64,000 bases of DNA from a virus. Where the stretch lies: IMG/VR virus record IMGVR_UViG_3300047548_001261, positions 1 to 64,000 of that record. The stretch is one strand, 5' to 3'. The notes under the pieces were generated by a model. The model ran no database searches, was not told the DNA's origin, and saw nothing but the letters and a program-made list of their open reading frames with translations. The translations under genes were made by a program, and so were the position numbers. The first letter of the stretch is position 1; the number at the start of each line of letters is the position of its first letter. Below, piece after piece: positions 3,355 through 46,288 of the stretch.

Positions 3355-3545
3355 CGCTTACGCTCCACTTTAACAAATTCCGTACAGCTCACGACCCCAT
3401 CCACCCCACGGACGGGGTGGAAAAATTTCACCCGTCCCCCATCACCAACCTTTCTTTTATCGTCCCTGGCGCAAACAGGCTTCAAGGAGCAGCGCGTATT
3501 ACAACAGAAACACCAAGTAAGCCCTTTCACGCCCAGGTCTCCCAT
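3351..3545 (-). CDS. small Cys-rich hypothetical protein
   Basis: Short ORF overlapping the terL start by 4 nt. Confidence 0.45.
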   Translation of the reverse strand: MGDLGVKGLTWCFCCNTRCSLKPVCARDDKRKVGDGGRVKFFHPVRGVDGVVSCTEFVKVERKR

Positions 3546-34776: not shown

Positions 34777-35289
34777 GTGGCCGACCAATCCATAAAGAAG
34801 GACCTGCACAGGCTAACTTTAAGCCCAGCCTTGGCAACGCCAGGGCTGCCAGAAAGGGTTGCAGCCCTGGAGATCGGTTTAAAGCGGGGCATCGGTTTAC
34901 CAAATTACGTGTCTCGGGCGCCAAGCTCCTCGACTCATGTTGAGGTTATTTCCGTTTACTCACATATTCTGGTGACAGAAGCAGGGGCGTGGGAGGTGCC
35001 GCAAGGGTTCCCTGACTCTGGGGATTACATCAACGGATCGACATTCGATTTGCTAGAGCCACATTATATGCAAAGGCGGGTGCACGCTGTTTGGTACGAC
35101 ACTGGCGGTGCAAACTTGTTGGAGACTCGGTTTATGGTTAGGTTGGAACAGCCTTACAGCGCACTGATAAACACGTTGGAAGAGGGGGGTATTCTCGGGG
35201 AAGTTCTGTACGGTATTGATTTCATTGATTCAGGGAAACCGCTGATCTTGAATAAAGTTGAGCAGCTGAGGAGTTTGTTGGGGATATGA
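34777..35289 (+). CDS. tail-associated hypothetical protein
   Basis: ORF coupled to neighbours. Confidence 0.5.
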   Translation: MADQSIKKDLHRLTLSPALATPGLPERVAALEIGLKRGIGLPNYVSRAPSSSTHVEVISVYSHILVTEAGAWEVPQGFPDSGDYINGSTFDLLEPHYMQRRVHAVWYDTGGANLLETRFMVRLEQPYSALINTLEEGGILGEVLYGIDFIDSGKPLILNKVEQLRSLLGI

Positions 35290-37163
35290 ATCGGTCTTGG
35301 ACGCATAAGAATATTGCGAGGAGTATTCAGTTTAGTTCGAAAGGGGTCCTTCTTTGGCCCACAAGTGACGACGCACCGAACGGGTGGGGAGAACCTTTTG
35401 ATACGATTACTGGTACGATAGGGGGGCCGAACCCAAACGTCTTACTGACATACACAGGGCCTACGGTAGGTATTAAACGAGGAGTCAAAAGGTCGCAGGC
35501 TGGTAACTGTTACTGGCGCGGCCCGCAAGGCAGAGTTATCTCTTGGCAAGGCCCTTGGGGCTTTCAAGTCGAATCCCCTGCACACTACTTCGGTACACCG
35601 TCGTACTCGTCCTCGTACGAAATAGCTCTGGCTGCAAGGGCTGGCGCTGCTCTATCCTCCATCGGGTACACTCAGACTACATCTTATATCCCGATAAACC
35701 CTTCTAACCCAACAGGCCCAGGTACATGGCTTATCCACGGGTCTCGGTTTTCCACAAAAATTTTCAAAACTGGTAAATTATTTGCCACCGCGCCAAATAA
35801 AATTCTAGGGGCTGCGGAATTAAATGGGGGGATTATAGCCATCTTAGTCGACCAGACGATCCGGTATAAAAAAGGTCCGGCGGATTGGGTAACTATAGGG
35901 ACTTTAACAGACCCAACTGTCACCGATCCGGCTAAAACACTTTTGCCCTACTTAGGTATATTCTCCTTTGATGCCGACGGGTTGCACGCTATCGCTATCC
36001 GATCTGTCCTTTGCCGGGACAACCTTAACCCGAATTACGCAACGAACCACATAGAGAAAGTCCTGACTAGGGTGTCGGTGTCCCTTGATGCAAATGGAAA
36101 CCTAAGCACTTCCGTTTCACACACTGCCACAGGGGCTTTAGCGCTTATATCGACATTTCACTCGGTCAGTACTTATACCCCACCACCGCCCCCGTATACA
36201 GACGGTGGATCAGGGAGTTATTCAGACACAACAACGTACTCGTCAGAGGGCGAAACTGTTGTTGCAGCAGGATTTTACGGCAATACAGAGGTCGTCTTGT
36301 CGGCTAAGGCTCACGAAACTTCCCAAATATGGTCCACCTCATCTTCTGGGTACCGTTATGGGGATGGAGGGGAGAACGGGGAAGGGTTATTATCGCACTC
36401 ATACACTGAATCGGGGAGTAATAAAGTCGGATTGTATAACGGCGAGGACTTATTGGTTGATTTGTTTGTCAGCACTAAAACTACGTCTTCTTCTAGCAGT
36501 GAGCAATCACATTGGGGTGAGCGTAGGGGCAGCGATTCTGCGTCTGGTGGTTCAACGTCTTCAACTACTTCTTCTACAGAGTCATCTTCTTTACTATTCG
36601 CAGATGTTTCTGTAAGTCTTCCGGAACTCTGTCTTGTTAAGGAAGTTTCGTACTCCTCGTCAGAAAATTCAGGCTCCTTCGAGGTCTCCGTCGTGGTTAA
36701 TACCACCGAAAGTACCTCTTCCTCCACAGCGTCTCATACAAATTCCGTCATTAACCCTAATGTATCCTTCCCTGTAGATCAGAGAGGGCCTATCACAACA
36801 ACAAGTACTGGGCATCTCGAAACCCTTGCAAACATCGGGTTCAATTCAGCAGGTAACTATGAAACCACTAACACGAATAGAGAATACAATGTCGTAGGGG
36901 CCAATCACTTTAGGAGTTACCACCCAACGGCGGGGTATGTAGATATATTTCCCGTCTGTTACGGGGTTGTTGACCCCGTTTCCGGGTTTTGGGCTACTGT
37001 TCACTACCTGTATACAGTGAATTCCGGAACTGCAGACCTTAGTGTTGTAGAGACGACGACTGCGCAACTACCGAATGGGTTAACCCCAGAAAGTTTTCTG
37101 GGGTTAACTGGAGACAACCAAGCACTTGGCAATCTTCCTAGCAAGGGGGTTTACTTACTTTAA
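35286..37163 (+). CDS. tail-associated protein (possible receptor binding), Ser/Thr-rich C-terminal half
   Basis: 625 aa, last gene of the virion module. Confidence 0.55.
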   Translation: MNRSWTHKNIARSIQFSSKGVLLWPTSDDAPNGWGEPFDTITGTIGGPNPNVLLTYTGPTVGIKRGVKRSQAGNCYWRGPQGRVISWQGPWGFQVESPAHYFGTPSYSSSYEIALAARAGAALSSIGYTQTTSYIPINPSNPTGPGTWLIHGSRFSTKIFKTGKLFATAPNKILGAAELNGGIIAILVDQTIRYKKGPADWVTIGTLTDPTVTDPAKTLLPYLGIFSFDADGLHAIAIRSVLCRDNLNPNYATNHIEKVLTRVSVSLDANGNLSTSVSHTATGALALISTFHSVSTYTPPPPPYTDGGSGSYSDTTTYSSEGETVVAAGFYGNTEVVLSAKAHETSQIWSTSSSGYRYGDGGENGEGLLSHSYTESGSNKVGLYNGEDLLVDLFVSTKTTSSSSSEQSHWGERRGSDSASGGSTSSTTSSTESSSLLFADVSVSLPELCLVKEVSYSSSENSGSFEVSVVVNTTESTSSSTASHTNSVINPNVSFPVDQRGPITTTSTGHLETLANIGFNSAGNYETTNTNREYNVVGANHFRSYHPTAGYVDIFPVCYGVVDPVSGFWATVHYLYTVNSGTADLSVVETTTAQLPNGLTPESFLGLTGDNQALGNLPSKGVYLL

Positions 37164-37248
37164 GTTCCAGCGGAGCCGCGTCCGCTGGGTTGGTCGTGTT
37201 TCTGGAAGTCCAGTTCAGAGCGCACCGACCCTTAACGTGGCGTTATAC
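37152..37248 (+). repeat. attC-1 (degenerate left end)
   Basis: ...TAC-TTTAA-GTTCCAGC...CCTTAAC-GTGGC-GTTATAC. Confidence 0.6.
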
Positions 37249-37468
37249 AGCAATTTCCAGCGTCGCATTCCAAAAGTCCCGCCCCAAAGGCGCAATCATG
37301 GCAATGCGGCTCTCCATCGTCATTAAAAATTCCGTCTTCCTCGCAATTTCCAGTTGGCTCGTCACACTTACAACAAAGTTGCCGCGTTCCAGGATAATGC
37401 GTGGCATTCCATCGCTCATGGCTGCCCTGATCCATAGCGTGTCTTTTTCCACCAGGCCATTCGTTCAT
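37232..37468 (-). CDS. cassette 1: small Cys-rich zinc-finger-like protein
   Basis: CCKC...CHDC. Confidence 0.65.
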   Translation of the reverse strand: MNEWPGGKRHAMDQGSHERWNATHYPGTRQLCCKCDEPTGNCEEDGIFNDDGEPHCHDCAFGAGLLECDAGNCCITPR

Positions 37469-37481
37469 TTTTTGTTCCAGT

Positions 37482-37578
37482 GCATAACTCTTAGTTCAAG
37501 CGGACAATCCGCCATTTAACGCATTTGCGTGGTTAAATTTCAGTGTGTGGCGGCTTGCCACTTAACACGGCGTTATGC
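37482..37578 (+). repeat. attC-2
   Basis: GCATAAC-TCTTA-GTTCAAGC...ACTTAAC-ACGGC-GTTATGC. Confidence 0.9.
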
Positions 37579-37755
37579 ACCATATCCGCGTTCAAATACT
37601 TCATATCCAAAATTCTTGCCAAATGGATTATCTTCAGCGCATTCTTTAGCCAATTCAGCCGTCTCGAATTTAGCTATTTCATCGCCGTCTTTATCCATTA
37701 GCGGTGTGTACCCGCCACTTTGTGTTGTTAGCATTACGAAAAAATCGCCTTCCAT
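37573..37755 (-). CDS. cassette 2: hypothetical protein
   Basis: 60 aa, GGAG RBS; TAA stop lies inside the attC-2 core. Confidence 0.7.
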   Translation of the reverse strand: MEGDFFVMLTTQSGGYTPLMDKDGDEIAKFETAELAKECAEDNPFGKNFGYEVFERGYGA

Positions 37756-37773
37756 TTTTTATCTCCAGTTGAC

Positions 37774-37857
37774 GTATATCCCATCATTCAAGCCGACGCT
37801 CTAAGCATCAGCTCATTGTTTAGAATCTATCCCGCGAGGCTTAATCTTGCGTTATAC
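37774..37857 (+). repeat. attC-3
   Basis: GTATATC-CCATC-ATTCAAGCCGACGC...GGCTTAAT-CTTGC-GTTATAC. Confidence 0.8.
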
Positions 37858-38136
37858 GCACTGGGTTTCGTCGATAGCGTAAACACTCACAGGTTTTTCT
37901 CCAAAATGCGGATGTGTGATCCGCTTTTGTGGCGGATACCCTGCCCACTTTCTGCGTATCGTTTTTGACTCATCACCACGCTTCGGGTACCCTAATTTTA
38001 TGTGGATTTCGTCGTATTCAGGCCCACGCAAGCGGCGTTCCCAATAGTCGTTTGTCGCGCGATATTCCTCTGTCTTTTCGCCTTTGGCTATCGCGTGCCA
38101 ATATTCAGCCTTTAGATGCAACGTTAAAATACGCAT
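37852..38136 (-). CDS. cassette 3: ASCH/PUA-like domain protein
   Basis: LTLHLKAEYWHAIAKGEKTEEYR. Confidence 0.8.
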   Translation of the reverse strand: MRILTLHLKAEYWHAIAKGEKTEEYRATNDYWERRLRGPEYDEIHIKLGYPKRGDESKTIRRKWAGYPPQKRITHPHFGEKPVSVYAIDETQCV

Positions 38137-38232
38137 AACTCATAGCTCCAAGCGACGCAGTGCCGCGCCACGGTATTTTATTAAATTTAAGATAAGTGGC
38201 GCGGCACTGCGCTCCTGAGCATGGTGTTACGC
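38133..38232 (+). repeat. attC-4
   Basis: GCATAAC-TCATA-GCTCCAAG...CCTGAGC-ATGGT-GTTACGC with a long GC stem. Confidence 0.88.
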
Positions 38233-38522
38233 CCTTTTAAAATATGACTCAAATTCCGCTCGCCATGTATCCATGTATCCCTGTATTGCTCATATAGCCC
38301 TAGCATCCAGTAAATTACATAAGCTTGCTCTTCTTCCGCTTTCTTTGGTATGTCGTGACCTAATTCACGCAAATTGCGCGATAGCTGTCCGCACCAAAAA
38401 TTAGGGCGGCCTAGGATAAATCTTGTTTCGTTATTTAGTTCAATTGTTACTTTTTGGCACAACAATCCGGTCAACTCATGCCCACCGACCTGTGGCGGTT
38501 GTGTAGTTTTGGTTTGGTTCAT
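38187..38522 (-). CDS. cassette 4: hypothetical protein
   Basis: Starts inside attC-5 and ends inside attC-4. Confidence 0.65.
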   Translation of the reverse strand: MNQTKTTQPPQVGGHELTGLLCQKVTIELNNETRFILGRPNFWCGQLSRNLRELGHDIPKKAEEEQAYVIYWMLGLYEQYRDTWIHGERNLSHILKGRNTMLRSAVPRHLS

Positions 38523-38579
38523 AGTTCATCGCTCCGTTAAGGTTTCGTGTCCGGCTGGCTGGTTAGCTTTGCGTTAGGT
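38457..38579 (+). repeat. attC-5
   Basis: GCACAAC-AATCC-GGTCAACT...GGTTAGC-TTTGC-GTTAGGT. Confidence 0.75.
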
Positions 38580-39481
38580 ATACTCCGCAAAATATGCGCT
38601 ATTACATCCACAGTCCAGCCATTTCCTAGCATTCGTTTAGCCTGATTATCAGAGACAGAATCAGTGTACCCCTCTGGCACGGTTTGGAGTCTTTCGCACT
38701 CTCTGCGGGTATAGTGCCTGTACGGCAACCTTCTACCAAATGCGTCAGGATGTCTGCCTATCGGCATTGAAGTAAGTACATTATCTTTTGCCACTGTCGT
38801 TAAACAATTCGATTTATTCCTGTTACTTTCGCGCACCTCTAGGCATTGTGTTATCGGGATAGATTTATTGCAATCATCCCTAACTCCTCTTTCGTTTAAT
38901 CGTCGCCCCAGAATAGTCGCTTTGTTTAGATACCTTCCCCGTATCGCGGCCGGTGAAATAACCTCAATATCATCCAAAATATCAACTAGGTTTATGTTTT
39001 TATTCTCCGGCCGCTCGATATTTGGTATGTTTGTCCAATATAGCCTTACTCTGTTCTGTGCGGAAAGCAGCGAAGAATTTATCTCAATGGGCAAAACCCC
39101 AAGTTTGTCACTTATTACATCTTGCCACTCCTTTTTCATTCCGACGTTTTCAAGTAGGAAATATTTTGGCTTGCATTCTTTCATCAGCCTAACAAATTCA
39201 AAGAATAACTTACTACGCGGGTCTTCAAAATTAAGTTGCAGCCCGCTAGATGAGAACCCTTGGCACGGTGACCCTCCTATCAGCAAATCAATCTGTGGTA
39301 AGTCTGCCGCTACGACATTGACCACATTTCCAATCCTGATAATTTCTGGATAATTTGACTCTGATACCTTGATAGCGTGTTTATCTATTTCGCTGGAATA
39401 ATAGGCTTTAACTGGTATTCCTGCGCGCTCCAAAGCTATACGGCCACAGGACATTCCGTCAAAAAGCGATAGTACGTTCAT
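38537..39481 (-). CDS. cassette 5: DNA cytosine-5 methyltransferase
   Basis: LSLFDGM, GGSPCQGFS, ENV, QNRVRLYW, ECERLQT, LGNGW. Confidence 0.92.
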   Translation of the reverse strand: MNVLSLFDGMSCGRIALERAGIPVKAYYSSEIDKHAIKVSESNYPEIIRIGNVVNVVAADLPQIDLLIGGSPCQGFSSSGLQLNFEDPRSKLFFEFVRLMKECKPKYFLLENVGMKKEWQDVISDKLGVLPIEINSSLLSAQNRVRLYWTNIPNIERPENKNINLVDILDDIEVISPAAIRGRYLNKATILGRRLNERGVRDDCNKSIPITQCLEVRESNRNKSNCLTTVAKDNVLTSMPIGRHPDAFGRRLPYRHYTRRECERLQTVPEGYTDSVSDNQAKRMLGNGWTVDVIAHILRSIPNAKLTSQPDTKP

Positions 39482-39513
39482 CCAATTTACCTATTCGTTG
39501 TAAGTAAAAACCA

Positions 39514-39577
39514 GCCAGACCCTGCGCTCCAGAGCGACGGCGGAAAAGCACCGCCGCGCCTGAACTATGCGTTGGGC
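39514..39577 (+). repeat. attC-6
   Basis: GCCAGAC-CCTGC-GCTCCAGA...CCTGAAC-TATGC-GTTGGGC. Confidence 0.8.
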
Positions 39578-39578
39578 T

Positions 39579-39803
39579 TCAGCCTATATCGTCTAAGTAA
39601 TCCTTGAGTGCAACATAAGCTCGCGCAAATGCCTCTTTTCTTGATGGTGAATTGTTAATTTTTATCTCTGCATCGCCCCATTTGCCAGGTTCTTTGCCTC
39701 TTCGGTCATAGACAAAAATATTCCAGTCTGTAATCCCGTTGTGACCAATTTCCAGTGCCAGCATTGATTGCTGGGCATATAAATCTAAAAAATCTTCTTC
39801 CAT
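39579..39803 (-). CDS. cassette 6: hypothetical protein
   Basis: 74 aa, GAGG RBS. Confidence 0.7.
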   Translation of the reverse strand: MEEDFLDLYAQQSMLALEIGHNGITDWNIFVYDRRGKEPGKWGDAEIKINNSPSRKEAFARAYVALKDYLDDIG

Positions 39804-39825
39804 ACAAGCCTCTTAATTATCTATA

Positions 39826-39947
39826 GCCCAACAAGTCAGTCAAGCTGGACGGTGCGCCTGTGGCGCGGGTTAAAGTCAGTGTTTCGGTAAGGGCCAGTGC
39901 GCTAATCAGGTTATTCCAGCGCACCGCCCCTTACCTCTGCGTTATGC
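39826..39947 (+). repeat. attC-7
   Basis: GCCCAAC-AAGTC-AGTCAAGC...CCTTACC-TCTGC-GTTATGC. Confidence 0.88.
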
Positions 39948-39949
39948 AC

Positions 39950-40117
39950 TTACATGTCCAGCAAGCTGCGCACAACATCAAGCAACGTATCAGCAATCTT
40001 ACCGTCTTTGCCGTAGTCGGCGGCAAGGCGGCGAAGGCGCTTATAGCAAGCTTCGTCAACTGCGTTGTTATCGTCTCTATCTTTCAGCAATTCTTCAATC
40101 AATTCTTCGTCTGTCAT
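39950..40117 (-). CDS. cassette 7: small acidic protein
   Basis: MTDEELIEELL...; could start upstream within attC-8. Confidence 0.6.
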   Translation of the reverse strand: MTDEELIEELLKDRDDNNAVDEACYKRLRRLAADYGKDGKIADTLLDVVRSLLDM

Positions 40118-40119
40118 GT

Positions 40120-40216
40120 GCATAACTCTTAGTTCAATCGGACAAGCCGCCATTTAACGCATTTGCGTGGTTAAATTTCAGTGTGTGGCGGCTTGCCGCT
40201 TAACACGGCGTTGGGC
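40120..40216 (+). repeat. attC-8 (near-identical to attC-2)
   Basis: 3 mismatches to attC-2 up to the final GTT. Confidence 0.92.
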
Positions 40217-40217
40217 C

Positions 40218-40517
40218 CTACCAGCGGCGGATATTCGCAAAATCCCAAAATTGTCGGCGACCCTCAGCATCGGTTGCGTCGCTCCATAGCAAAGCTATCC
40301 GCTGGCCCGTCATTGCCTCGACAACACCGTTAATTAGCCCGAGAGCTCCAACGGCGTATCCGCCGGTTACGCCTAGCTCATCAACCTGCACCGTCGGGTG
40401 ATCTGCCAGCGCATGATTACACGGCACGCGGTTGCACATCAGCGCATGAATTGCGTTTCTGTCGTCGTTGTACGCGCCATTTAGTGTGTCGATGGCTTTT
40501 TGTATTTGCGTTGCCAT
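40218..40517 (-). CDS. cassette 8: hypothetical protein
   Basis: 99 aa, GAGG RBS. Confidence 0.7.
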   Translation of the reverse strand: MATQIQKAIDTLNGAYNDDRNAIHALMCNRVPCNHALADHPTVQVDELGVTGGYAVGALGLINGVVEAMTGQRIALLWSDATDAEGRRQFWDFANIRRW

Positions 40518-40532
40518 ATTGGCCTCAATTTT

Positions 40533-40577
40533 GCCTAACGTTACATTCGAGCGGACGCGTGGTAAGCGCCGCTCATT
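40533..40577 (+). repeat. attC-9 (right core missing)
   Basis: GCCTAAC-GTTAC-ATTCGAGCGGACGC...GCGCCGCTCATT; no GTTRRRY at the expected spacing. Confidence 0.7.
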
Positions 40578-40714
40578 TACCCAGCCCCGTTCGCCTGCAC
40601 CTGTGAATTCAGGTTAAGGGTGCCTGCTAATCTTCCAGTGAGCTTATTCGTGCCCTGGTTAGCCTTCCAAGTGAACTCGCCGGTTTCCTGCTCGTAATTT
40701 ACTAAATCTTTCAT
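40577..40714 (-). pseudogene. HNH endonuclease N-terminal relic
   Basis: MKDLVNYEQETGEFTWK...LAGTLN resembles the N-terminal HNH region at 5817 (LSYNPETGNFTW); 45 aa. Confidence 0.65.
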
Positions 40715-42744
40715 AGTTGTATAACATTCTCAGCCACATCATCTTCCCGGTGAGTTACCGTAAGCGACTGGCCACAAAAAGAGTTTAACGCAAGCATACA
40801 TTGCAGACTCACATCCTTATCCATATCGGCGGAAACTTCGTCCAGGATCAGGCAGTCCAGGTTCGTCGTCGATAACCTAACAAGCCCAAGCTTCATTCCA
40901 AGACCCATCAAAGTTTTCTGCGCACCCGATGCCGACGACTTACTAAACACATGGTCATTCTCTTTATAAGAGATGGCGCCATTGTGGAGCAGCACACTTT
41001 GAATATCTCCCTGCGTCGCTGTCTTGGCAAACTCCGAAGCTACAGAGAAGATTACGTCGTTCGCCTCGGAGACAATACTTGCCCTGTGAGTAGAAAGAAC
41101 CTGTACAATTTCGGCATAAAGCTGAGCTTTGTCGGAGTTTTCCTTTTCCAGTTCTAGCGCTTTCACATGTTTGGCAAAGGCGTCTTGTGCAGTCCGTAAA
41201 GCTTCCTGGAAAGTTCTTAGCTCAGAGGATGCAGCCTCGAATGCCTTGCGGTTATCGGTAGAGTCCTGACAAACCTTATTGAGTTGCGCCGTTAACTCGC
41301 TGAGGTTTATCAACCCGCCGGCAGGTGGAGTCAATGCTGCAAACTCCGTCGTTAGCTGGGTAAAGTCGTCGTTCTCTCTCTGGGTCTGCTTATTTTGCTG
41401 GGTTTCCTCAGCGATTTTCTTTGATAATGCACGGGCTTTCGTCGTTAAATCATCAAGATTATGCCCAGGGTTTTTACCTAATGCGTCATTCGCTGATGCT
41501 AAATCTTTCTTCGCCCTTTCGACCTTTTCCACATAGGATTCGTAAGCGTTGACAAGTTTAGTGTTGGCACGAACCGCTTCGCTTGCTTCAGAAAGCCTTG
41601 CTTTCGCTTCCGCAACCTTGGACTCTAGCCCAGGAATGCTATTTGAAGCCTCTGCCAAAATCTTTTCAAGCGTAGGTAATTCGTGGTAGCCGTCATAAGG
41701 TCTCTTGCACTCAGGGCAAACAGCATCGTGTACCGCAGACCGAAGCCGCTTAACCTCGTCTTGCTTATCGCGCAAAACACCGTTTGCCGCAGTCAACAAA
41801 CCCCCAAGGTGTGCGGTTTCGTCCACGATTTCTTCAACCTTTTCGACAGGCTCTCTTTCCAACCTCGCGAGGATGTCCTTATAAGTTGAAACCTTTTCAA
41901 ACTCCTTATCGTACTTCCGTTGATCTTTCTCTTGTTGATACAGACTAGCAACCTCAGCCTCGTCCTCGACAGTATCGAACAAAGGCTGCAAAGCTAACCC
42001 GTCCAAAGCTTTACGTTTGGTATCGTAAGCGTCCACAGCTTTGTTATGGTTCACTGCTTCCGTCAGCTGTTTCGTCAAGGATGCTGTTTGTGTGTCACAT
42101 GCCTCGCTTGCAGCCTTAAGCCCGCTTAGCGCCTTTTCTGTGTCGGATATATCGCTGGCAAAGATGGTCCTGGCGGTAACATTTTCAGCCACATCGTCGT
42201 CGCTAAGAATGTCTGAAGCATAAGCCGTCGCCAAGGTTGTAAAGTTTGCCTCCCCCTTCCTGGCCGCCTTCACAACCTTGTCCAGCACATCCACACCAAT
42301 ACAAGACTCGATAAACCGCTGAAGTTCAGACCCCTCCATGTCCAGCAAATGCTGAGGGGACCCTTGCGGGCTCATATAAATTTGATTAAATTTCGCTTTG
42401 GTAATGCCCAACTCTTCAACTATTGCCGCATTGACTGCTGTGTGACCTCTGACGAACGGCTCTGCCGAACCCCTTGCGATGTTACTCTCCTTGGACGATC
42501 TCGTCACAGTGAGCCCTGAGCTCAGCGTAAGCACGATCTTGAAGTCCTTTGTGCCCCGACGAATTAAGTCTTTGGTGTCGCAAGGGGCGACGCTGTTACC
42601 GAACAGCGCAACATGAATCGCTTGTAACACCGTGGATTTGCCTTGGTAATTCTTGCCTTTGATGAGGTTTGACCCGTCGGCGAAGTCCAAGGACAACTCA
42701 CTGAAGCGTTTAAAATTGGTCAGGTGTAAAGATTTAAGCTTCAT
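40711..42744 (-). CDS. SbcC/Rad50-like ATPase
   Basis: GKNYQGKST, CPEC zinc hook, ASGAQ signature, LILDE. Confidence 0.9.
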   Translation of the reverse strand: MKLKSLHLTNFKRFSELSLDFADGSNLIKGKNYQGKSTVLQAIHVALFGNSVAPCDTKDLIRRGTKDFKIVLTLSSGLTVTRSSKESNIARGSAEPFVRGHTAVNAAIVEELGITKAKFNQIYMSPQGSPQHLLDMEGSELQRFIESCIGVDVLDKVVKAARKGEANFTTLATAYASDILSDDDVAENVTARTIFASDISDTEKALSGLKAASEACDTQTASLTKQLTEAVNHNKAVDAYDTKRKALDGLALQPLFDTVEDEAEVASLYQQEKDQRKYDKEFEKVSTYKDILARLEREPVEKVEEIVDETAHLGGLLTAANGVLRDKQDEVKRLRSAVHDAVCPECKRPYDGYHELPTLEKILAEASNSIPGLESKVAEAKARLSEASEAVRANTKLVNAYESYVEKVERAKKDLASANDALGKNPGHNLDDLTTKARALSKKIAEETQQNKQTQRENDDFTQLTTEFAALTPPAGGLINLSELTAQLNKVCQDSTDNRKAFEAASSELRTFQEALRTAQDAFAKHVKALELEKENSDKAQLYAEIVQVLSTHRASIVSEANDVIFSVASEFAKTATQGDIQSVLLHNGAISYKENDHVFSKSSASGAQKTLMGLGMKLGLVRLSTTNLDCLILDEVSADMDKDVSLQCMLALNSFCGQSLTVTHREDDVAENVIQL

Positions 42745-43762
42745 TTGATTCTTCCAGTAATTGTTTGAATACCTCTTGGGCGTCGGCACTCAAGCTATCG
42801 GCAATCTTTTCGACCCAGTGAAGTTTGGGGCCATCTTCATCCATAATCACGTCTGTCTCAGCTTTCAGGGACCGAGTATTGGGCTTGATTGCGATCAAGG
42901 TTTCGGACGTTTTATACCACTCGGCAATCCTGGAGTTGATGGCAATGGTCTCACCGATGTCCACGGTGCCGGTTATTTCGATGAACTGTAAAGGGGCGTC
43001 CAGCGGATAGGCAAGGAAATCTTTGTAGTCGAGGGACCTGAACCGACCATCTACCGGCCACACACACTCCTTTGTCCCATCTACGGAAATAAACTTATCC
43101 GTCATCTCCCCAAACGACATCGGTAAGACGGACCCCAACATCGTTACACCTATCATTGGCTCCCGATAATTGTGCTCATGGCCGGAGATGATCGCGTCGA
43201 AATGCTTCATTGCGTGACCGCCGTGCTCGTCAGACATCAGGTGTGCTGCTACATTAGGCCTTAAATAATTTTCCGTCTCTGTCCCAGGTTGGTCGCCAAA
43301 GTTGCAGTGAAGTACCAGGATGTTGTACTTTTCAGTGTTCGGAAAGTTTTTGGCGCTTGCCAGCATCGTATCAAACTTTTCTTGGGTCAACTGGTGAGGT
43401 AGCAGGGTGTACTTTGTGGACTCAGTTTCAAAGAAGTAAGGTTGTTCCCAAGCAATTGTGCAACCGGTTTTGCGAAGTAGATTTACTGCCGATTCTTTTT
43501 CCGTGTTGTTGGATACATCGTGATTCCCTGAAAGGACGACTTCGCATGACGCGGCAAACATGTAACCTTCGACAAAGGTCTCTGAGTTGCAAGAGAAGCT
43601 GTCGAATAAATCCCCAGCCTGGATAATGCTTCCCTTGTACTCTTCGGTAAACCATATTAAAAGGTCTTTCTTGTACTGCGCCCACCGTGCCGCAGTTTTG
43701 GTTGATGTGAAAGGGAAAGGTTTTCCCAAGTGGATGTCGCCGACTATTGTTATGTTATTCAT
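42734..43762 (-). CDS. SbcD/Mre11-like nuclease
   Basis: GDIHLG, AGDLFD, GNHD, SGHEH. Confidence 0.9.
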   Translation of the reverse strand: MNNITIVGDIHLGKPFPFTSTKTAARWAQYKKDLLIWFTEEYKGSIIQAGDLFDSFSCNSETFVEGYMFAASCEVVLSGNHDVSNNTEKESAVNLLRKTGCTIAWEQPYFFETESTKYTLLPHQLTQEKFDTMLASAKNFPNTEKYNILVLHCNFGDQPGTETENYLRPNVAAHLMSDEHGGHAMKHFDAIISGHEHNYREPMIGVTMLGSVLPMSFGEMTDKFISVDGTKECVWPVDGRFRSLDYKDFLAYPLDAPLQFIEITGTVDIGETIAINSRIAEWYKTSETLIAIKPNTRSLKAETDVIMDEDGPKLHWVEKIADSLSADAQEVFKQLLEESNEA

Positions 43763-45042: not shown

Positions 45043-45266
45043 GGGGTGCTAGCCTCGTGTTGGTTGGTGTCTAAGCTGTTGTAAAGCCGTCGATCAACCG
45101 AGTAAGAAGCTGGCTTTAACCTACCCTCTTTTTCCTTGGAGTCTCGGACAGTCTCGGCACCGGCGTTACGGGCCTCGGTGTAACAGGCTTGCTCTATGGA
45201 CAGGCCTTTGAGTTTTGTACCATAACGGTTGTAGAAAGTTACTTGGTAGTTGCCCGTGGTAATCAT
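45039..45266 (-). CDS. hypothetical protein
   Basis: ORF coupled to neighbours. Confidence 0.55.
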   Translation of the reverse strand: MITTGNYQVTFYNRYGTKLKGLSIEQACYTEARNAGAETVRDSKEKEGRLKPASYSVDRRLYNSLDTNQHEASTP

Positions 45267-46288
45267 TGTACAAAGTCCCCTGTAGAACCGAACCCATTAT
45301 CACCCCTTTCGGAGTCCTCCAGACTCGCCACCCGTTCATAAAAATCTAAATTAACAGGGATAGTTAGAAGTTGTGCTATTTTTTGACCGATATTTACCTC
45401 GTAAGCCTTATCTCCTAAGTTATATAGATGAACAAGAACCTCTCCCGTATATCCGCTATCAATACACCCGGCTCCGACCTCTATTTTATGCTTTACAGAT
45501 AACCCGCTTCTTGACCAAATTAGGCCGACGAAGCCATCTGGTACATTGATTTTTATCCCTGTCGAGATTATTTGACTACCTCCAGCCAGTATTGTTGTCT
45601 TGACGCAGGATAATATATCGAGACCCGCATCTAATCTGACATTTTTTGTTAACTGGGAACCAGTAGATTGCCCAGAATCCGCTAGCTTACCTTTTGCTGA
45701 CCTAGCAGCATTATGTAAAGCTGTGTGTTCTCCCCTCGTCATAACTTCCAAATTACTTAAGGAATTGTTTAACCTGTTTTCATCGACATGGTGGACGTCA
45801 AACTCTGGATTTAAATACCAACCCCCTTCTATTTCTTGCAGAAACCTGTATTGGTGTGTAGCCCTTAAGTAATGCTCCATAATCAACCTGTGTAGGCGTA
45901 TATCATCGTCGCAAGTCCTATAGGGGTGTGTGTAGTTTTTCACTAAAACGTACCCGTTAGGCCCTACACGAATACCAGACACCCAAGAAGAGTTTTCAGG
46001 GCCTTTTACTCCGAACTGGTGGTTAAGCTCTCCCACCATTCTTTTGCTACGAGCGACCTTACCACAATCATACGAGCAAGTTATGTCACCCGGATTTACA
46101 CGCTTAGCTAAGTGGCTTGGCTTTAAGTGGAAAGGTTTTGCACAAACCGAGCACTGTACGTTGTTAGTCGCCCTGAATCTCACGCCCATACACTCCTTAG
46201 AGCAGCAATGGTGTTTATTATTCTCCATACGCTGTCTGGACAACTCAAAAGGTTTTCCGCAGACTTCGCAGTCAACTATTACTTGCAT
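45263..46288 (-). CDS. dut: zinc ribbon-HNH endonuclease fused to trimeric dUTPase
   Basis: HRLIME...VHHVDENRLNN..NLE, then DAGLDI, RSG, GCIDSGYTG, IAQL, RGDNGFGSTG. Confidence 0.85.
   Translation of the reverse strand: MQVIVDCEVCGKPFELSRQRMENNKHHCCSKECMGVRFRATNNVQCSVCAKPFHLKPSHLAKRVNPGDITCSYDCGKVARSKRMVGELNHQFGVKGPENSSWVSGIRVGPNGYVLVKNYTHPYRTCDDDIRLHRLIMEHYLRATHQYRFLQEIEGGWYLNPEFDVHHVDENRLNNSLSNLEVMTRGEHTALHNAARSAKGKLADSGQSTGSQLTKNVRLDAGLDILSCVKTTILAGGSQIISTGIKINVPDGFVGLIWSRSGLSVKHKIEVGAGCIDSGYTGEVLVHLYNLGDKAYEVNIGQKIAQLLTIPVNLDFYERVASLEDSERGDNGFGSTGDFVQ

Follow-up and report, generated by a model that had tools for sequence, protein, structure and literature searches.

Canonical attC sites with cassette genes on the bottom strand in an integrase-less array of a freshwater phage

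Integrons obey a simple rule, in that selectivity for the bottom strand of the cassette recombination site, attC, inserts promoterless genes in the sense of the cassette promoter, Pc. Here we describe a phage array in which the genes lie on the opposite strand of their sites. The window, by which we mean the whole stretch of 64,000 nucleotides analysed, covers the initial 64 kb of an IMG/VR virus record (IMGVR_UViG_3300047548_001261) that is complete at 81,895 bp and has direct terminal repeats, and the phage is of lytic type and from freshwater. Between positions 37150 and 40600 it carries nine repeat elements, namely seven full sites, one remnant and one half-site (s1 to s9), which lie between eight minus-strand open reading frames (ORFs). 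With seven co-oriented attC sites inside 3.1 kb of a genome that has no tyrosine recombinase, the region is a cluster of attC sites lacking an integron integrase (CALIN), and we consider it probable that its eight cassettes, which combine canonical attC sites with cargo on the bottom strand, belong to a cassette pool of phages. Phage attC arrays are already known; what is new here is the reversed polarity of the genes, the position of attC as a 5′ leader and the placing of the stop codon at the crossover.

The repeat elements all read on the plus strand and have the anatomy of attC. R″ and R′ boxes with AAC...GTT triplets were found in s2, s3 (R″ ATC), s4, s6 (GAC), s7, s8 and s9, 5-nt spacers on both sides in s2, s3, s4, s6 and s8, and loops of 7 to ∼60 nt. 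Site s2 (37482-37578; R″ GCATAAC, R′ GTTATGC) is 97% identical to s8 (40120-40216), whose R′ is unlike that of s2 after GTT (GGGC vs ATGC); the two are joined to unrelated genes of 78 and 55 aa, and their differences include paired stem positions. The other full sites are s3 (37774-37857), s4 (38133-38232) with a perfect inner stem of 16 bp, the short s6 (39514-39577), the long s7 (39826-39947; R″ GCCCAAC, R′ GTTATGC) and the last site, s9 (40533-40595), which has R″ GCCTAAC, a long outer spacer and a poor R′, GTTCGCC. Site s5 (∼38525-38579) is a degenerate remnant with R′ GTTAGGT at 38573-38579, and s1 (37219-37249), at the left end of the array, is a half-site consisting of L′-R′ only (R′ GTTATAC), 81% identical to the right half of s7 and without a complementary left arm.

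Both strands of each site were folded with DNA energy parameters, and bulges were mapped with the R boxes forced to pair. At every full site the minus strand folded more stably than the plus strand, and the unpaired single bases sat on the minus-strand 3′ arm, opposite the 5′-RYYYAAC box; on the plus strand the same extras are C and A, on the 5′ arm with AAC. Single G and T bulges, equivalent to T-N6-G, were obtained on the minus strand of s2 and s8, a G bulge and a 1×2 loop in s3, which likewise counts as T-N6-G, and T and G at ∼N5 in s4. The fold of s9 showed the T bulge, its G (T-N6-G) being visible by hand alignment only, while the minimum free energy fold of s7 was captured by the long loop and hand alignment gave T-N7-G. 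In s6 the bulges were T and T, not T/G. An earlier note on this DNA had held that the arms of s2 and s8 pair only if one C and one A are looped out, and had set the folding of both strands as a check; the constrained folds agree with it. Its extension of the same pattern to sites 3, 4, 6, 7 and 9 held with small variations for s3, s4 and s9 and by hand alignment for s7, and failed for s6.

Four independent tests agree that the plus strand is the canonical top strand. The first concerns the bulges. In the bottom strand of an attC, the arm opposite AAC holds the extrahelical bases, whereas in a top strand they share the arm of AAC (PMC5027507), and T-N6-G is the pattern that the folded bottom strand shows in the attC sites excised most efficiently by IntI1 (PMC3053210). 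The minus strand of the window fits both of these bottom-strand rules. For the second test we built a covariance model, R1, from eleven homologous s2-type sites read on the window plus strand, and used as a benchmark the In2 integron of plasmid R100 (NC_002134), in which intI1, aadA1 and qacEdelta1 are annotated. R1 matched the aadA1 attC with 35.6 bits (E 7e-10) on the aadA1 sense strand, vs 12.9 bits on the antisense strand, and it is the sense strand that carries RYYYAAC and the extra C and A; the plus strand of the window therefore corresponds to the gene-bearing strand of a classical cassette. Within the window R1 likewise placed the top strand on plus, with 112 bits vs 34 on minus for s2, 47.9 vs 23.8 for s4, 22.4 on plus only for s3 and 14 vs 8.7 for s6. 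Strand calls below ∼18 bits were not trusted alone, as R1 put attC1 of Tetrasphaera phage TJE1 on the wrong strand with 13.7 bits.

The remaining tests rest on comparison among homologous sites and genes. The eleven s2-type sites come from the window and from nine viral contigs. They are 92% identical and their left box is nearly invariant, but the right box varies right after GTT (ATGC, GGGC, ATAC, AGCG, AGTG, AGGC), as predicted if crossover takes place at G|TT of a plus-strand R′. A family of N4/N6 methyltransferases (53-65% amino acid identity) was present at six loci, and in 6/6 the start codon of the gene lies directly beside R″ of an s2-type attC; the start-side sites show an identity of 0.81-0.92, whereas the stop-side site is unrelated (0.35-0.70). 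Since it is the start-side attC that is conserved, the gene travels with attC in front of it, as a plus top strand requires. Complementarity between R″ and the preceding R′ was rejected as a further polarity test because both polarity models predict the same pairs. Two technical routes were also abandoned: a scanner combining regular expressions with pairing, which found only s2 and s8 amid noise and was replaced by the covariance model, and a MAFFT alignment of all site types, which misaligned the short sites and so was not used for the model.

Every family-supported gene of the array is written on the attC bottom strand, and the minus-strand ORFs fill the cassettes, with starts from inside R″ to 32 nt past it and stops in the neighbouring R′ or a few bases from it. 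Cassette 1 (37232-37468) encodes a Cys-rich protein of 78 aa without a family, and its start codon lies 13 nt from R″ of s2. The 60-aa ORF of cassette 2 (37573-37755) closes with a TAA whose final base is the last one ahead of the AA|C crossover in R′ of s2, and that of cassette 3 (37852-38136; 94 aa; phrog_625, E 8e-31) has its ATG inside R″ of s4 and its TAA in R′ of s3. Cassette 4 (38187-38522; 111 aa, no family) extends ∼40 nt into s4. The largest product is the C5 cytosine DNA methyltransferase of cassette 5 (38537-39481; 314 aa; PF00145, E 3.9e-43; phrog_116, E 6e-68), followed by cassette 6 (39579-39803; 74 aa, no family), cassette 7 (39950-40117; 55 aa, or 57 aa if started at an in-frame ATG inside R″ of s8) and cassette 8 (40218-40517; 99 aa; phrog_21281, E 1.5e-8). 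None of the seven plus-strand ORFs in the region (50-161 aa) matched PHROGs at E≤0.1.

These results bear out several further points of the earlier note. It had taken the top strand as the usual sense of cassette ORFs, as the R100 benchmark confirms, and had stated that all eight ORFs here are on the minus strand, as the ORF list and the matches to PF00145, phrog_625 and phrog_21281 (which support three of them) indicate, and that plus is the top strand, for which the bulge arm, the aadA1 benchmark, the divergence after GTT and the linkage of methylase and attC all speak. With plus as top by four tests and all supported cassette genes on minus, the recombinogenic bottom strand is the mRNA-sense strand, as had been claimed, and the plus-strand ORFs, which the note had named as a possible real cargo that would overturn its view, lack any such PHROG match. 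It is also true that the ORFs are co-oriented with the phage replication operon, since the minus-strand SbcCD operon reads into the array, and that in a bacterial integron Pc would transcribe the cassettes in the antisense direction, which follows from the polarity rules cited above (PMC5027507). Two further ideas of the note, expression from phage promoters and an orientation set by the strand asymmetry of phage replication, may be correct: the co-orientation with the upstream operon speaks for the first, and GC skew, which transcription confounds, is compatible with the second.

The comparison with the aadA1 cassette of R100 summarizes what is and is not shared. Both have RYYYAAC, a 5-nt spacer, a GTT-C-AAG...A... 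arm and GTTRRRY, and both cross over at G|TT. The R100 gene occupies the top strand, is followed by its attC and is expressed from Pc beside intI1/attI, whereas the genes of the array occupy the bottom strand and are preceded by attC, and intI, attI and Pc are all absent. Thus 8/8 ORFs of the array depart from the classical cassette, a promoterless top-strand ORF with attC downstream.

The cassette boundaries also have features that could matter at the RNA level. The bottom-strand R″ GTTATGC contains an ATG that is the start codon, or is in frame with the start, at 38133-38136 and 40120-40123 and in related loci, and the purine-rich spacer TAAGAG before this ATG resembles a ribosome-binding site. 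In a folded RNA, the stop codon of the previous gene (in R′) would pair with the start region in R″.

We next asked how widely this layout recurs. A 21-nt pattern from the s2 arm, scanned over viral contigs, metagenome contigs and 185,579 species genomes, occurred in 14 viral contigs and 35 metagenome contigs, and R1 identified 95 sites in 35 loci on viral or metagenome contigs, all co-oriented within each locus. The longest ORF was on the bottom strand in 47 of the 59 non-redundant intervals between sites, and median interval coverage was 98% for bottom-strand ORFs vs 56% for top-strand ORFs. Among 51 well-filling bottom-strand ORFs, TAA formed the final three bases before the AA|C crossover in 25, and 23 started between -4 and +7 nt from R″. 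Pfam-supported bottom-strand cargo of the related arrays comprises N6_N4 methylase, Dam, MT-A70, PAPS-reductase-like and RNA ligase genes. A tblastn search with the window proteins against loci L001-L019 gave no match; the loci compared thus share no backbone proteins with the window, and the attC type therefore crosses unrelated phages. The s2 attC had no match among cultured phages and plasmids.

A cultured phage has the same layout. In Pseudoalteromonas phage H101/PH101 (NC_029094 74500-80500, our locus L065) four co-oriented attC sites, at 1420-1477, 2030-2086, 2809-2885 and 3432-3488 of the locus, have their top strand on plus, and 12/12 annotated genes of the region are on minus, so that PH101 is inverted like the array of the window. 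The repeat unit of PH101 continues for ∼60 nt past R″, taking in AT-rich leader sequence found ahead of every minus-strand gene, and the attC there may belong to a larger module of promoter or leader type. Phage TJE1 is canonical, its genes and its C/A extras both being on plus. The earlier note had recommended a survey of attC versus ORF orientation in phage arrays and had suspected a distinct class; the bottom-sense majority in 35 contigs, the 25 stops at the crossover and the inverted PH101 establish a distinct and recurrent class instead of an accident, with TJE1 as a canonical array in the same survey.

According to Qi et al. 2023 (Front Microbiol, PMC9892861), there are 17 phage CALINs, with methyltransferase cargo, and IntI1 recombines five phage attC sites, with sites of PH101 and TJE1 among them. 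An integrase-less attC array, small ORFs and DNA methyltransferase cargo are shared with the window; the arrays described there have 2-4 sites, vs nine sites and eight cassettes here. Their layout is called ‘most typical of bacterial arrays’, and the strand of the genes relative to attC polarity is not mentioned in the text consulted (PMC9892861).

The array lies at the exact convergent junction of two modules. The plus strand up to 37163 encodes the portal, the major head protein and very large tail-associated ORFs, and the minus strand from ∼64000 down to 40711 encodes SbcCD, a Dda-like helicase, a ligase and a PolA-type polymerase. We aligned contigs of other public runs to 36500-41500 and found two relatives with a backbone 90-95% identical to the window, X3 from a wastewater run and X5 from another metagenome. 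No RNA data set containing the array turned up among these runs, and the one labelled RNA-Seq covers only scraps of it and is probably DNA. Identity with both ends at 37166, three bases past the stop codon of the late gene, and resumes at 40131 in X3 and at 40715 in X5 (joint 38565 to 40715). The relatives keep s2, s3, s5 (in the piece 38473-38577 of X3 and 38512-38565 of X5) and parts of s7 and s8, and other DNA of similar length replaces cassettes 1-2, 3-4 and 5-6. The X3 match stops exactly at G 37851 of the G|TT of s3. In a distant relative (SbcC 36% identical; L056:9025-12654) sbcC abuts the convergent late gene and no array is present, as expected of an empty site. The differing cassettes and the empty site therefore identify the array as an insertion at the junction whose content changes among close relatives. 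A scan of viral contigs with the single SbcC protein found nothing, and no attC was detected in the rest of the complete genome.

How the cassettes move and are expressed has to be reconstructed from these patterns. The complete 81.9-kb genome has no tyrosine (PF00589), serine or Y1/HUH recombinase, and a search that was positive in 14/14 control genomes found no IntI-like protein in ten further viral records that share the attC type, of which three are complete. We infer, as the simplest agent, a host integron integrase that would act in trans on the folded bottom strand and exchange cassettes between phages. On the minus strand, the mobile unit runs from attC through a start codon, 0-30 nt beyond R″ or at times within it, and the ORF to a stop codon that coincides with or adjoins the AA|C crossover in the neighbouring R′. 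Since the upstream phage operon is in line with the bottom-sense ORFs, both here and at most of the related loci, the cassettes are likely to be expressed by read-through from the sbcCD/replication operon. Sigma-70-like sites in the array numbered 4, vs 6.5 in shuffled sequence, and terminator-like sites 6 vs 5.6, in a scan that does not cover phage-specific promoters. Exchange between two attC sites preserves polarity and, once arrays are transcribed in the bottom sense, only bottom-sense cassettes would be useful. The outcome would be a phage pool, consisting largely of DNA-modification or counter-defence genes, that is set apart in expression from the top-sense pool of bacteria.

Several observations weigh against a phage pool of integron cassettes. 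The exact-pattern scan of the 185,579 species genomes gave chance or partial matches only, revealing no bacterial integron with the attC type of the window. The array is also not a complete integron, having no intI or attI, a truncated attC at its left end and no excess of promoters. The bottom-sense bias among the related loci is ∼80% and not total, as two top-sense cassettes with Pfam support, encoding Methyltransf_12 and Laminin_G_3, interrupt otherwise inverted arrays (L022:273-1016 (+), L042:185-928 (-) and L042:1882-2766 (-)), and the 35 loci, having been ascertained via one attC type, describe a pool and not independent events. Finally, the sites are placed where roles in translation or transcript structure are possible. 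The top-sense cassettes may be captures from the bacterial integron pool; a reading of L022 and L042 as one cassette in two contexts was ruled out because they are overlapping contigs of one genome.

A variant that goes further would make the reversed pool the phages' own. Here the attC bottom strand would serve as an mRNA leader that supplies the ribosome-binding spacer, the start and the stop, the cargo would be a counter-defence set of DNA- and RNA-modification genes, and the orientation would both isolate expression and expose the recombinogenic strand. We regard this as a tentative proposal with a real but lesser chance of being correct. If true, it would imply either a phage-specific genesis of cassettes or the hijacking, during infection, of a host integrase induced by the SOS response.

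A second alternative places the cause of the reversed polarity in strand exposure. Selection would have favoured an orientation that presents the recombinogenic bottom strand in single-stranded form and so maximises cassette turnover, with genes co-directional with replication, and the strand could be exposed as the non-template strand of a strongly transcribed operon or, if forks converge near 36-37 kb, as the lagging-strand template. Cumulative GC skew reaches its maximum at ∼36 kb, and over the array G is enriched on the minus strand, both compatible with this view, as is the turnover of cassette content among close relatives. Bottom strands on the lagging-strand template are reported to favour folding and excision, and sedentary integrons avoid that orientation (PMC13108822, PMC11551772). 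However, GC skew follows the direction of transcription genome-wide, so that replication and transcription are inseparable by skew, and phage TJE1 keeps a canonical array. We therefore think selection for strand exposure unlikely.

Slightly more doubtful still is the idea that the hairpins are intergenic regulatory or recombination repeats of phages that resemble attC, with a role in transcript structure, translation coupling or modular shuffling, and that genes are shuffled between them by homologous recombination or template switching. It would account for the failure to find an integrase in eleven viral records or a bacterial integron with this attC type, for the Shine-Dalgarno-like purine spacers, start codons and stop codons that the sites supply, and for the repeat of PH101 that runs past attC into its leader. 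Yet the structural hallmarks of attC are all present (two bulges at N6, 5-nt spacers, AAC/GTT triplets), and the model made from these sites picks up a genuine attC, correctly oriented, with an E-value of 7e-10. Homology within the site family stops at GTT, G|TT is also where the X3 match breaks off, neither promoter-like nor terminator-like sites are in excess, and similar phage attC sites were recombined by IntI1 in Qi et al. 2023 (PMC9892861).

The promoter-early stem-loop (PeSL) cassettes of T4-type phages offer a comparison. They combine a terminator hairpin with an early promoter and are shuffled by homologous recombination, and in hypervariable parts of these genomes such short stem-loops stand on either side of small accessory genes. 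The sites of the window are like PeSLs in flanking small variable genes, but unlike them have the bulges, spacers and AAC/GTT of attC and no sigma-70-like or terminator-like signal above chance.

There is very little room left for a misreading of polarity, in which plus would really be the recombined strand and the cassettes canonical: attC sites are near-palindromes, weak ones can receive a wrong-strand R1 call (as did TJE1 attC1) and s6 and s7 lack a clean textbook fold, but at the strong sites bulge arm, aadA1 benchmark, post-GTT divergence and ORF-attC linkage all agree, 95/95 sites are co-oriented within their own loci, and the bottom-strand oligonucleotides that Qi et al. used for PH101 are its coding strand (PMC9892861), so that this reading is largely refuted.

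Reversed genes as such occur in bacterial arrays as well. Some toxin-antitoxin cassettes of the Vibrio cholerae superintegron are encoded in the reverse sense. In sedentary chromosomal integrons, promoter-bearing cassettes are a minority that use their own promoters, whereas in the window the whole array is reversed, has no promoter excess and is co-oriented with an operon. Bacterial cassettes with Pc-independent expression have been described (PMC13108822, PMC8876359). Among the papers searched, none described a reversed or antisense arrangement of cassettes comparable to the array reported here.

Should the reading as a phage cassette pool be correct, cassette polarity would be set by the place at which an array is transcribed and not fixed by the chemistry of recombination, and phages and bacteria may run two cassette economies between which DNA is exchangeable and expression is not. 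The question of how cassettes arise becomes testable, because attC is here joined to the 5′ ends of genes. With its methylases (C5, N4/N6, Dam and MT-A70), its RNA ligase and its PAPS-reductase-like protein, the cargo points to a store of counter-defence genes in phages, which would be the counterpart of the defence cassettes that bacterial integrons have recently been found to carry.

The genes that border the array belong to the shared backbone of the relatives. On the left, the last late or structural gene (35286-37163, plus strand; 625 aa) is found in the ORF list and in the backbone shared by the relatives, and the array starts directly after its stop codon. A perfect 8-bp hairpin at 37169-37190 (plus strand), between this stop and the s1 half-site, is likely to be the terminator of the late operon and marks the left border of the variable region. 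On the right, the SbcC-like ATPase (40711-42789, minus strand), with homologues at 74-93% identity, is the final backbone gene of the replication/repair operon that reads into the array. Between it and s9 lies a minus-strand ORF of 45 aa (40577-40714) with a weak HNH likeness (phrog_99, E 2e-4), which falls in the stretch that is replaced in relative X5. A megablast search with 20 kb against cultured phages gave no match.

Some further observations concern individual loci. A search with IntI1 against all loci gave a single match, of 55 aa, to a generic tyrosine recombinase of 335 aa (L031:1025-2032 (-)) that lies beside an s2-type attC array on a 2.5-kb metagenome contig. This protein scored 28 bits on the integron-integrase model, vs a cut-off of 265, and may be the integrase of a temperate phage or else a divergent partner to the array. 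The loci L015-L019, from bacterial metagenome-assembled genomes, were set aside as uninformative, only L017 having an attC-like left half, without a right half. Within the replication module of the window, the minus-strand ORF at 45263-46288 has HNH-endonuclease matches over residues 5-200 and a dUTPase match over residues 220-337, and is possibly an HNH insertion or fusion in a dUTPase gene.

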